A DNA stretch of 64,000 nt from positions 1,632,001 through 1,696,000 of the forward strand of contig OY970364.1 of the NCBI GenBank assembly GCA_963718565.1, given 5' to 3'. The translations under genes and the position numbers were made by a program. The stretch is from an uncultured Verrucomicrobiae bacterium (GTDB lineage: Bacteria; Chlamydiota; Chlamydiia; Chlamydiales; Rhabdochlamydiaceae). This document shows positions 262 through 37,485 of the stretch, piece by piece; position 1 is the stretch's first letter; each line of letters starts with the position of its first letter. The notes below the pieces were generated by a model. That model had not been told where the DNA came from and did no database searches. It saw nothing but the letters and a program-made list of their open reading frames with translations.

Positions 262-1008
262 ATGGCAGCGATTGAAATCTCGGAAACGCTTAAAGATGAA
301 TTGCTTAAATTTTTAAAAAAAAGCAAAAAAGCAGATCTCATCACAACCTATCTCTTTTTTTTGGAAAAAAAATTTAATATCGACCCCGTCCTCTTCATTC
401 GTGATAAAATGATTTTTCAAAGCGAGGACGAGTTAGTAGACAAGTTAGAGTCTCAGGGAAAGCTTTGGCGCGAGACAGAGATTAAGATCCAATACGGACA
501 ACAAAGTGTCAATGAGCAAACAAAAAAAGTGTATATCTGTCCATTTACCGGCAAAGTTTTTGGCGACAATACTCACCCCAATCCGCAAGATGCCATTTAC
601 GATTGGGTGTCAAAATGTCCAGAAAACAAGGAGCGTGTCGGAGGACTGAAGGCCAAGCGTTTTTTTGTCTCTGAAGATCTTGAAGTGATCAAAAACTACA
701 TCGTCAAACGCAAAGAGCCAATCACAAAGATTGTTTATTCCTCTGCAGTTACAGGAAAACTATTCAACAGCAAGGAAGCCGTCCTCGACGATTTTGTCAA
801 AAATCAACTGAAGCCAATTCCTTTAGAAGAAGTTCCTAATCAAAATCGTTTCCAAATCGAAGAAACCTTTCTCGCCTTCATTCAAAAACAGCTTGAAGAA
901 GGTAAAATCAATTCATTTGTAGAATCTTTATCACAATACGATGAATTCTCATCCTACATCGATCAGTGGCTGGAGGAGGTCAAAGAAGAGTCTGAAGATG
1001 AAGGGTAA
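262..1008 (+). CDS. Conserved chlamydial hypothetical protein (DUF2709-like)
   Basis: 248-aa ORF with AAGGGGA RBS and YICPFTGKVFGDNTHPNPQDAIYDWVSKCPEN block; lies upstream of tsaE/dnaQ as in Chlamydia. Confidence 0.7.
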   Translation: MAAIEISETLKDELLKFLKKSKKADLITTYLFFLEKKFNIDPVLFIRDKMIFQSEDELVDKLESQGKLWRETEIKIQYGQQSVNEQTKKVYICPFTGKVFGDNTHPNPQDAIYDWVSKCPENKERVGGLKAKRFFVSEDLEVIKNYIVKRKEPITKIVYSSAVTGKLFNSKEAVLDDFVKNQLKPIPLEEVPNQNRFQIEETFLAFIQKQLEEGKINSFVESLSQYDEFSSYIDQWLEEVKEESEDEG

Positions 1009-1032
1009 ACCTTTGGCCGTCTTTTTCAAGAT

Positions 1033-1683
1033 ATGTTATACCGCGCGCAGGAAGGTTTTGTGAATTTGGACTCAGCGAGGCAAAGCACAATCGAAGCTTG
1101 CGGTCCGAATGACGAAGCCATAGTGAAAACTATGGCTGCGGAGACACGAGAAGGTCTAGTAGACCTTCGCAGTGCAGAGCAGGTGAACGAAGCGAACGGG
1201 GAGGATCGATTGGGCAAAGCCGCAGCCAGTCCAAATTCACAAAACCTGACGGAGCGCGGTATATTTGCTAAACATACCACACACTCCCCCGAAGAAACTC
1301 ATCGTTTAGGAAAAGCCTTTGGCCAATCCCTAACTTCCGGTTCCATCATTGCTTTCTTTGGAGACCTCGGTGCAGGTAAAACGACTTTTATTCGCGGTCT
1401 TGTCGATGGGATCGGCTCAGTCGATATGAGAAACGTGTGCAGCCCAACGTTCACTCTCTTGAATATCTACAATGGGGACAAAATGGTATTTCATTTCGAT
1501 CTTTATCGACTCCCTAGAGAAGAAGAATTTTTTGCCGCTGGATTTGATGAATATTTTAAAGCTGGGGGCATTTGTTGCTTGGAATGGGCTGAAAAAATTA
1601 CCTCCTCGCTCCCTACTCATACTTTCAAGGTCATTTTTTCTCACCTCGGAGAAAAAACAAGACAAATTGAGATTTTAAAATGA
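1033..1683 (+). CDS. tsaE: tRNA threonylcarbamoyladenosine biosynthesis ATPase TsaE carrying a 75-aa in-frame palindromic-element insertion
   Basis: GDLGAGKTTF Walker A, SPTF, HFDLYRL and EWA motifs; residues 3-77 are encoded by the inverted-repeat element at 1037-1263. Confidence 0.93.
   Translation: MLYRAQEGFVNLDSARQSTIEACGPNDEAIVKTMAAETREGLVDLRSAEQVNEANGEDRLGKAAASPNSQNLTERGIFAKHTTHSPEETHRLGKAFGQSLTSGSIIAFFGDLGAGKTTFIRGLVDGIGSVDMRNVCSPTFTLLNIYNGDKMVFHFDLYRLPREEEFFAAGFDEYFKAGGICCLEWAEKITSSLPTHTFKVIFSHLGEKTRQIEILK
1037..1263. mobile_element. Palindromic MITE/RPE-like element, family H, in-frame in tsaE
   Basis: 36-bp TIR tataccgcgc-N7-ggttttgtgaatttggact with TA at both ends; internal hairpins and shared module at 1135-1200. 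Confidence 0.9.
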
Positions 1684-29942: not shown

Positions 29943-30186
29943 TATACTGCGCCCAGCCTAAAAATATGAATTTAGGGAGTCTTAGAACAGCCCAGGCTTG
30001 AGCGAAGCAAAGCGCTCGTGACGAGGAGGTACTAAATTAATACCTCCGAGGCTGCGGACACTTTGCAAATGTCCGGTGGACATTTGCGAAGGGAAGCAAG
30101 TGAGCGAAGCGAACCGGGAAGATCGTTCAAAAATGGGCTGTTATAATGGCCCCGTAAATTCACATTTTTAGGCTGGACGCAGTATA
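29943..30186. mobile_element. Palindromic element family F (244 bp) containing the shared module
   Basis: TIR tatactgcg(c/t)ccagcctaaaaat(a/g)tgaattta with TA ends; module at 30051-30118. Confidence 0.9.
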
Positions 30187-37257: not shown

Positions 37258-37485
37258 AGGGAATTGCAAAACTCCTCGCCAGCAGAAAATCGATGATTTT
37301 GGCACCTGTTGCCAGAACCCGCACAGCGGGTTCGGTTGGCGGCGGCGAAAGCATACTTGGATAAGTTGGCTGCGAAGACACGAAAAGGTCCGGGGAACCT
37401 TCGTAAGTAGCAAAGCAGGTGAGCGAAGAGCGAACCGGGGCCGAAGGCAGCCGCCGCCAAGGCAACAGGTGCCAAAAGCGCGATT
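37258..37485. mobile_element. MITE family A, long form with the shared module, right TIR missing
   Basis: Colinear with the reverse complement of 41771-41950 plus an ~80-nt insert at 37369-37448. Confidence 0.88.

Follow-up and report, generated by a model that had tools for sequence, protein, structure and literature searches.

Rickettsia palindromic elements (RPEs), comprising RPE-1 and its relatives, were reportedly described by Ogata et al. in 2000 and 2002 and by Claverie and Ogata in 2003, and to our knowledge coding palindromes in frame with their host genes have been seen as peculiar to Rickettsia. Here we describe a palindromic element of 227 nt that lies in frame at the second codon of tsaE in an uncultured bacterium of the Rhabdochlamydiaceae (GenBank assembly GCA_963718565.1). 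The locus is part of a 64,000-nt stretch of contig OY970364.1 (positions 1,632,001 to 1,696,000), which is referred to as the window and from whose first nucleotide local coordinates are counted. Judged by comparison with known systems, the element belongs to an RPE-like system in the Chlamydiota that has the anatomy of a TA-targeting miniature inverted-repeat transposable element (MITE). Like RPEs as they are usually portrayed, its relatives are short, hairpin-forming, dispersed repeats of an obligate intracellular bacterium; they lie in frame and free of stop codons in conserved housekeeping genes whose orthologues lack the insert, they encode a hydrophilic peptide, they favour protein termini and surface loops, and several unrelated palindromic families occur in one clade. 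Unlike RPEs, they are hosted by the phylum Chlamydiota, terminal inverted repeats and TA flanks are clear in them, a candidate mobiliser of the IS630 family is encoded in the same genome, and they come in modular lengths (~93, 170 and 227 nt) with a central module common to a second family; their copies are 93-99% identical, and their retention in mRNA and protein is predicted from open reading frames (ORFs). The likeness is functional: the elements are not filed in the RPE sequence families, and no sequence relationship is expected.

MITEs derived from IS630/Tc1-mariner elements, such as the cyanobacterial and neisserial ones, offer a second comparison. As in those, the elements described here are small, have terminal inverted repeats with TA at the ends, are present in many copies and lack a transposase of their own, and a TA-flanked IS630-family transposase is encoded in the genome; the terminal repeats match the resident insertion sequence (IS) only in TATAC(T). 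Typical MITEs are overwhelmingly intergenic or gene-disrupting, whereas the subfamily found here has a multiple-of-three length and an open hydrophilic frame and lies preferentially inside intact genes. In this it resembles inteins and other in-frame selfish insertions, in which selfish DNA survives in essential genes by sparing the protein product; unlike inteins, it has no splicing domain and no homing endonuclease, and its peptide is presumably tolerated in the mature protein.

In the literature outside subscription journals, no description of in-frame palindromic or MITE insertions in Chlamydiae was found. RPEs are mentioned in PMC1779305, PMC1458961 and PMC1166351. MITECca01, a MITE of ~240 bp that has expanded in the repeat-rich genome of an intracellular symbiont, a Cardinium endosymbiont, is mostly intergenic or disrupts mobile elements and rarely inactivates genes (PMC9769881); the term 'in-frame' occurs 0 times in the main text of that paper. 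In the main text of a paper on IS elements and transposons of Rhabdochlamydia (PMC9723776), 'MITE' and 'palindrom' likewise occur 0 times each.

Anatomy of the insertion in tsaE

The preliminary description of this DNA had placed a TA-bounded inverted repeat at 1037-1263, after codon 2 of tsaE, and had regarded it as a stop-free insert of 75 codons whose removal leaves a complete TsaE. Analysis of the locus bore this out. The principal features were:

1033..1683, + strand: tsaE ORF with the insertion, 216 aa (M-L, 75-aa insert, 139-aa TsaE core)
1033..1038, + strand: ancestral ATG (1033-1035) and codon 2, TTA (1036-1038)
1039..1261, + strand: element proper, type A227, 223 nt, between TA 1037-1038 and TA 1262-1263
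1037..1107, either strand: left inverted-repeat arm, 71 nt, from the repeat search; pairs in the minimum-free-energy fold
1193..1263, either strand: right inverted-repeat arm, 71 nt, from the repeat search; pairs in the minimum-free-energy fold
1133..1201, + strand: central module, element positions ~97-165, missing from the 170-nt form
1264..1680, + strand: TsaE core with the Walker A GDLGAGKT, SPTF and HFDLYRL motifs

Over 1037-1263 (227 nt) the element starts TATACCGCGC... and ends ...GCGCGGTATA. Insertion took place at the TA of 1037-1038, which now forms the left copy of the duplicated TA. After ATG TTA the tsaE ORF enters TATACCGCGCGCAGGAAGG... at once; the matching end ...CCTGACGGAGCGCGGTATA closes at 1263 and is directly followed by TTT GCT AAA CAT. 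In net terms the insertion adds 225 nt (75 codons), and its sense frame encodes YRAQEGFVNLDSARQSTIEACGPNDEAIVKTMAAETREGLVDLRSAEQVNEANGEDRLGKAAASPNSQNLTERGI. In silico excision of 225 nt (the element plus one TA) gave ATG TTA TTT GCT AAA..., that is MLFAKHTTHSPEE, a start that matches the MLF/MLV starts of two congeners. Since excision leaves a single TA and restores the congener MLF start, the TA is read as a target duplication; at the nucleotide level this was checked at the tsaE site, and the other copies were judged by their TATAC/GTATA ends.

The two 71-nt arms were 73% complementary, and the RNA fold of the element had a free energy of -110.7 kcal/mol, compared to -66.9 ± 4.8 for shuffled sequences (z = -9.12; 0 of 200 shuffles were as stable). 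Two of its six frames were free of stop codons, namely the tsaE frame and one antisense frame, with 75 codons each. At 53%, the GC content of the element exceeded that of the tsaE core (42%) and that of the genome (44%). Contigs of a second soil metagenome run covered 985-1135 and 1231-1424 with 0 differences; because these independent contigs bridged both junctions exactly, the insertion is not an assembly artefact. The runs that contained the tsaE stretch were soil metagenomes.

The TsaE Pfam domain (PF02367, E = 7e-37) covered residues 84-212 and profile positions 2-128 of 128. Because this domain lies wholly downstream of the insert, the extra 75 codons stand before a complete TsaE. The GDLGAGKT, SPTF and HFDLYRL columns were invariant among 20 aligned sequences (this TsaE and 19 orthologues). 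In the AlphaFold model the predicted local distance difference test (pLDDT) score of the core was 81-95 (means of 10-residue blocks); it was below 50 for residues 1-28 and 39-75, and these low-scoring parts of the insert formed loose helices outside the fold. The nine best Foldseek matches were solved TsaE/YjeE/YdiB chains (6n9a_E, 5np9, 1htw_A and others) of 148-165 residues, with E = 2.9e-13 to 1.4e-10 and a root-mean-square deviation of 1.6-2.9 A over 138-147 aligned columns. As modelled, the TsaE fold is intact.

A single tsaE match was present in this genome, and TsaE was found in 29 of the 31 genomes searched, including all 23 high-quality ones in the order. Partners in the synthesis of N6-threonylcarbamoyladenosine (t6A) were represented by PF00814 at 288 bits (TsaD), by a weaker PF00814 match at 45.5 bits that is read as TsaB-like, and by PF01300 (TsaC/Sua5) at 199 bits. 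It is considered likely that tsaE is still functional.

The orthologue set comprised 19 loci, of which 15 belonged to congeners and 4 to members of other families. An alignment of orthologues had been expected to leave a clean gap of 75 aa, and an N-terminal extension shared by them would have contradicted the preliminary description. All 19 began at columns 78-84, none had the extension, and the gap over columns 1-77 was clean, a gap that reflects genome matches and upstream frames because the orthologues entered the alignment from their match starts. At 16 of the 19 loci 0-27 in-frame residues stood upstream of the TsaE match; the three remaining loci had 33, 59 and 125 such residues, and in these the frame simply stayed open back into the upstream DUF2709 gene. 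When the 19 upstream stretches were inspected by eye, none resembled the insert peptide. The closest congener, 80% identical in the TsaE core, had no insert. A MAFFT alignment that mixed orthologues and insert peptides was rejected in favour of the orthologue-only alignment, as it mis-paired EDRLGKA of the element with ETHRLGKA of TsaE. The element sequence ATCGATTGGGCAAAGCC at 1205-1221 (peptide DRLGKA) does resemble tsaE ATCGTTTAGGAAAAGCC at 1301-1317 (HRLGKA), and the resemblance was taken for chance.

The surroundings of tsaE contained the following features:

262..1008, + strand: upstream gene of the DUF2709 family (PF10915, E = 3e-121, from Pfam), 248 aa
1680..2327, + strand: downstream GTPase gene, MMR_HSR1, EngB/YsxC-like
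1026..1280, - strand: antisense ORF, 84 aa, merely the stop-free antisense frame of the palindrome and no gene

The stop codon of the DUF2709 gene lies 24 nt 5' of the tsaE ATG; this gene precedes tsaE in relatives too, where it has the same C-terminal ...EEVKEE... tail. The ATG of the GTPase gene overlaps the tsaE stop codon (ATGA), which makes it probable that the two genes are co-transcribed. Between 900 and 1400 no family of Rfam, a database that may lack RPEs, was detected at E <= 1, and a terminator scan revealed no terminator-like site at the element. A promoter-like pair, TTCACA-18-TATATT (10 of 12 matches), was formed at 1236-1265 (+) by the 3' end of the element and the flank; it was given no weight and is probably meaningless, because three such sites occurred in the window compared to 3.9 expected by chance.

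The element family and its in-frame copies

The 227-nt element matched 98 places or strands of its own 2.28-Mb genome. A more sensitive blastn search yielded 175 high-scoring segment pairs, which merged into 96 places; 37 of these were full-length copies, and near-identical copies lay in unrelated flanks. The same superfamily was matched in 16 of 18 congeners, and the carriers among labelled relatives were metagenome-assembled genomes (MAGs) named Rhabdochlamydia, Chlamydiae or, apparently by mislabelling, Verrucomicrobiae. In an alignment of representatives the ends of the superfamily were conserved (TATAC-GCGC...GGTTTTGYGAATTTKGAC, with the complement at the other end) and the middles varied. 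Of the full-length copies, 31 of 37 started with TATAC and ended with GTATA. The types were:

A227, 227 nt: the type in tsaE
A170, 170 nt: A227 minus a central module of ~57 nt
A93-95, 93-95 nt: short forms
B and C, ~172 nt: a different core

Six coding-compatible A-type copies, with a net length of 168 or 225 nt, lay in spanning ORFs of 224-772 codons. All six had the same orientation and phase: a host NTA codon (Leu or Ile) was followed by YRAQEGFVNLDSARQ...NLTERGI (YRAQEGF...TERGI). A more divergent relative of the element, also in this frame, split a tyrosine-phosphatase domain into two halves. Pfam domains were detected in five of the eight spanning ORFs scanned, and there was no match in three short or unknown ORFs. 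The host proteins were:

FtsX-type permease: insert mid-protein
TolC-like OEP: insert directly after the signal peptide
TPS-domain protein: insert near the C-terminus
DUF455 protein: insert mid-protein
phosphatase and NADAR protein (Y_phosphatase+NADAR): insert inside the phosphatase domain

Orthologues cleanly without the insert were found for the phosphatase in nine species, for the FtsX permease in 4 of 4 with both flanks and for the TolC-like protein in 5 of 5. The phosphatase copy was considered as an ancient shared insertion for an analysis of nonsynonymous to synonymous substitution (dN/dS) and was rejected, as it is specific to this genome and belongs to another subfamily and there was no orthologous insert pair.

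Copies of other lengths were distributed differently. About 17 B/C copies (~172 nt) lay outside genes; 15 of them break the frame and have no open frame, and the two 173-nt copies had only short spanning frames of chance length (107 and 110 codons). None of three 171-nt A variants with a one-base insertion lay in a long ORF. The preliminary description had proposed that the in-frame fraction of copies in coding sequences be compared with chance. The 37 full-length copies were compared in this respect. A copy was counted as deep if in-silico excision restored an ORF of 100 codons or more and the copy lay 10 codons or more inside it; 5 of 11 frame-compatible copies were deep in ORFs, compared to 1 of 26 incompatible ones (Fisher p = 0.005). 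One of these five, at genome positions 906956-907125, is a 5'-truncated A170 form at the 3' end of a gene; it is out of phase and supplies a new C-terminus and stop codon. That the element inserted into tsaE, and that its family behaves as set out here, is regarded as practically certain.

The same bias extended across the 19 genomes of the genus in which sense and antisense peptides were compared. Among stop-free ORFs that reach 250 aa or more, 17 distinct ones contained the sense peptide (46 matches), compared to 1 with the antisense peptide (72 matches; binomial p = 1.4e-4). The sense peptide is acidic and hydrophilic (pI 4.6; grand average of hydropathy, GRAVY, -0.70), whereas the antisense peptide is basic and hydrophobic (pI 10.8, GRAVY +0.24) and has 4 Cys. 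Since a near-symmetric hairpin should act alike either way round in DNA or RNA, the sense bias is the best indirect evidence that the inserts undergo translation and are screened as protein. It argues for selection on a translated peptide.

In the genomes of other species 78 loci encoded the peptide, 66 of them without a stop codon in the match; 38 had at least 60 open codons on one side and 14 had at least 40 on both. Open flanks of at least 120 codons were present at 33 of the 78, and Pfam domains (E <= 1e-5) in 26 of these 33; about 10 of the 33 match the central module only and may be second-family copies. The hosts included PriA, DnaX, RecD2, a P-type ATPase, LpxK, a Mur ligase, a MiaB-like radical-SAM enzyme, pyruvate dehydrogenase E1, ABC ATPases, TilS-like and SpoU enzymes and a secretin. 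Near the N-terminus, copies in five other species kept an in-frame ATG one to ten codons upstream, as in M-I-[element] of a Mur ligase, M-I-E-T-[element] of an ABC ATPase and M-T-D-L-N-L-[element] of a glycosyltransferase. The analogy with RPEs drawn in the preliminary description was therefore strengthened, since in-frame copies of the same orientation and phase occur in Pfam-verified genes both genome-wide and genus-wide.

The tsaE gene of the congener G010 carried a different palindrome of 166 nt (locus L079 on contig G010:C81, L079:1049-1214, - strand). This palindrome is perfect (-145.9 kcal/mol), lies in frame and adds ~56 codons between NIYQGNQ and VVYHFDLYR, at a turn between two predicted beta strands. 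Its family had 57 matches in G010, 9 in G005 and 2 in G001, and no matches in the present genome (G000) or in G013.

The closest copy of the tsaE element, which lies in the FtsX permease gene, differed from it at 3 of 227 positions, and on account of this small difference the tsaE insertion is considered young. The family appears, from the sequences of its copies, to be currently or recently active. Copies of the A170 form in another species (G013, e.g. G013:C4:447479-447584) were 98-99% identical in DNA to those found here, and the TsaE proteins of the two species were 78% identical; this disparity suggests that the element spread horizontally between species recently.

No transposase ORF is present in the 227-nt element, whose open frames are the two 75-codon palindrome frames only. 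A search for the DDE_3 (IS630-family) transposase gave 16 matches, 15 of which (G000:C1:46837-47259 and 14 others, outside the window) scored identically at 99.4 bits; they lie in ORFs of ~360 aa. Eight aligned IS630-family copies had identical ends, starting TATACTATTCATG... / TATACTATTC... and ending ...TCTAGAGTATATA / ...AGAGTATATA. It is this transposase that would probably serve as the mobilising enzyme. Some IS630-family copies adjoin MITE copies, for example at 352779 and 2257281/2261083.

A second palindromic MITE family of ~270 nt, with ~26 copies, had unrelated terminal repeats (GAGGGAATTGCAAAACTCCTC), and its central 72 nt were the A227 central module. The elements are thus modular, because this module also forms the middle of a family with unrelated ends. 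A copy of the second family is present in the window at ~37258-37485, with the shared module at 37367-37439, and looks truncated on its right side. A 31-nt fragment at window positions 30095-30125 resembles the right part of the central module and has a twin at genome position 872847.

Probable translation of the extended tsaE gene

The reading that we favour, to which a probability of roughly 0.6 is assigned as a whole, is that a TA-targeting MITE sits in codon 2 of tsaE and that the gene is expressed from its ancestral ATG to give an active TsaE with an appendage. A non-autonomous MITE of 223 bp plus a duplicated TA would very recently have entered the single-copy gene at codon 2 (TTA), in the TA. 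With a net length of 225 nt, a multiple of three, and no stop codon in the sense frame, it would have kept the ORF as M-L-[75 aa]-FAKH.... The gene would most likely still be expressed from the ancestral ATG, and the product would be an active TsaE whose hydrophilic, acidic, poorly structured N-terminal appendage of 75 residues lies outside the P-loop fold. Across the family, a filter would permit survival in genes only of copies with a frame-keeping length, the sense orientation and a TA at codon positions 2-3, and all other copies would be confined to intergenic DNA. The mobiliser would probably be the IS630-family (DDE_3) transposase. Translation from ATG 1033, retention of TsaE activity and the identity of the transposase are the parts of this scheme that we infer.

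Possible start codons were compared by their opening cost, the computed cost of freeing positions -15 to +15 around the start:

1033, + strand: ATG, 77 residues before FAKH; 14.4 kcal/mol, against 7.0 in the element-free leader
1132, + strand: ATG, 44 residues before FAKH; 19.2 kcal/mol
1183, + strand: GTG, 27 residues before FAKH; 11.3 kcal/mol, the lowest of the candidates
1210, + strand: TTG, 18 residues before FAKH; 19.3 kcal/mol, with GGGGAGGA upstream
1060 and 1066, + strand: GTG and TTG, deep in the left arm; ~40 kcal/mol
1198..1212, + strand: candidate internal start from the sequence, with a Shine-Dalgarno-like GGGGAGGA (1198-1205), 4 nt and the in-frame TTG (1210-1212)

A start downstream of the element would have removed the insert from the protein, as the preliminary description recognised. 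There was no in-frame ATG, GTG or TTG at 1213-1290, nor any before Walker A, when the sequence was read. In the absence of such a start, any TsaE that keeps its conserved N-terminal residues contains at least 18 element-derived codons. Equilibrium folding predicts weaker initiation than before the insertion and no winner among the starts.

Translation of the full 75-residue peptide from the native ATG 1033 is judged to have rather better than an even chance. It is favoured because ribosomes must read whole elements in other hosts, because the N-proximal copies in five other species keep an upstream in-frame ATG, and because the 5' arm would be transcribed well before its partner, leaving a kinetic window for initiation.

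Several observations weigh against the scheme or weaken its support. The hairpin starts 2 nt after ATG 1033 and raises the opening cost there from 7.0 to 14.4 kcal/mol; no Shine-Dalgarno sequence precedes this ATG, while the element has GGGGAGGA-N4-TTG in frame; and the in-frame position of the element fits a native and an internal start alike. Because the insertion is very young, the intact tsaE ORF says little about selection since the event. In one of the five deep copies (genome position 906956) only 8 element codons are read before the host ORF stops, so that the cleaner contrast is 4 of 11 against 1 of 26, and the genic counts were derived from stop-to-stop ORFs and Pfam, not from a trained gene caller. 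The ends of the IS and of the MITE have in common only the terminal TATAC(T), 5-6 nt, and a weak TTYTGTRAAWTT-like subterminal motif, and for this reason the IS630-family element is a candidate and not a demonstrated mobiliser. In the rhizosphere metatranscriptome run X8 the 170-nt form was found in other flanks, and the tsaE junctions were not among the contigs. The X8 contigs with the 170-nt form represent other loci and are no proof of transcription.

The points about initiation are those on which an internal start would rest. TsaE would then be translated from within the element, likeliest from TTG 1210 after GGGGAGGA, with GTG 1183 and ATG 1132 as alternatives; 18-44 element residues would be added, the first part of the insert would be an untranslated leader, and the element would in effect be a mobile ribosome-binding site. 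The Shine-Dalgarno-like sequence 4 nt before an in-frame TTG, the lack of one at a native ATG that stands at the foot of a very stable hairpin, and the low opening cost at GTG 1183 (11.3 kcal/mol) are consistent with this, as is a similar GAGGAAGAGGA-TCGA-TTG in the 170-nt form. At locus L126 of another species, a 3' remnant of the element precedes a glycosyltransferase with no ATG, GTG or TTG upstream in the open frame. Against it, TTG 1210 lies in the paired right arm, where opening costs 19.3 kcal/mol compared to 14.4 at the native ATG, and TTG is a weak start codon. Whole elements are evidently read through in the TolC-like (after the signal peptide), FtsX, DUF455 and phosphatase genes, and the N-proximal copies of the five other species retain their ATG a few codons upstream. 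An internal start is therefore considered rather unlikely.

It is also quite improbable, in our estimate, that this recent insertion does mild or strong harm, the hairpin largely silencing tsaE or the extension disabling the protein, and that the gene has yet to decay. Less TsaE would then have to suffice for the organism, as is reported for some bacteria. The youth of the copy (3 of 227 differences) and the roughly doubled opening cost at the start are compatible with this explanation; moreover, the one RNA run examined shows other copies and not the tsaE junctions, and the allele was shown in only one other sample, which came from the same study. On the other side, tsaE is single-copy here, the rest of the t6A pathway is intact, and the gene is kept in all 23 high-quality genomes of the order. 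The orientation, phase and length are those that the family shows in essential genes and would, without selection, be a coincidence of about 1 in 6. The essential-type GTPase gene that overlaps the tsaE stop codon probably needs the same transcript. Three DNA runs showed no empty-site allele, a weak point because coverage was thin. The remaining alternative, that no mobile element is involved and that the stretch is an assembly artefact or a native lineage-specific N-terminal domain with incidental palindromy, is already refuted. Nothing speaks for it except that the genome appears metagenome-assembled, given its occurrence in soil metagenome runs and the MAG labels of its relatives; it is contradicted by the 96 related places with near-identical copies in unrelated flanks, by the independent short contigs that bridge both junctions exactly, by the orthologues that lack the stretch and by the GC content of 53% in the element compared to 42% in the core and 44% in the genome.

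Coding palindromes in chlamydial genomes

The locus represents an independent case of coding palindromes in another phylum of obligate intracellular bacteria, with hosts that include tsaE, priA, dnaX, lpxK and a secretin. The system is more tractable than the RPEs, given its young copies, its clear transposon anatomy and a candidate transposase in the same genome; in addition, sister subfamilies that keep or break the frame occur side by side and provide an internal control. Questions that can be tested in this system are how selfish DNA becomes new protein segments, which positions of essential proteins are tolerant and whether there is selection for translatability. For gene callers and orthology pipelines applied to environmental chlamydial MAGs, many inserts of 56-75 residues are to be expected that look spurious and yet are real.

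A broader interpretation of these data, which is put forward tentatively and at somewhat less than even odds, is that the A-type elements are MITEs that have been shaped by element-level selection to be protein-compatible and that spread horizontally, and that they constitute a second, independent and active coding-palindrome system convergent with that of Rickettsia. If this is true, a multiple-of-three length, one stop-free frame for an acidic, disordered peptide and an NTA-codon target would allow even essential genes to be colonised, and gene-dense chlamydial genomes would thereby be open to A-type elements. Copies would move between co-resident species, in keeping with 98-99% identity in DNA against 78% in TsaE. 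The hits of two unrelated families on tsaE in two species would be a mark of such a system, and new peptide segments would continuously be added to the housekeeping proteins of these bacteria.

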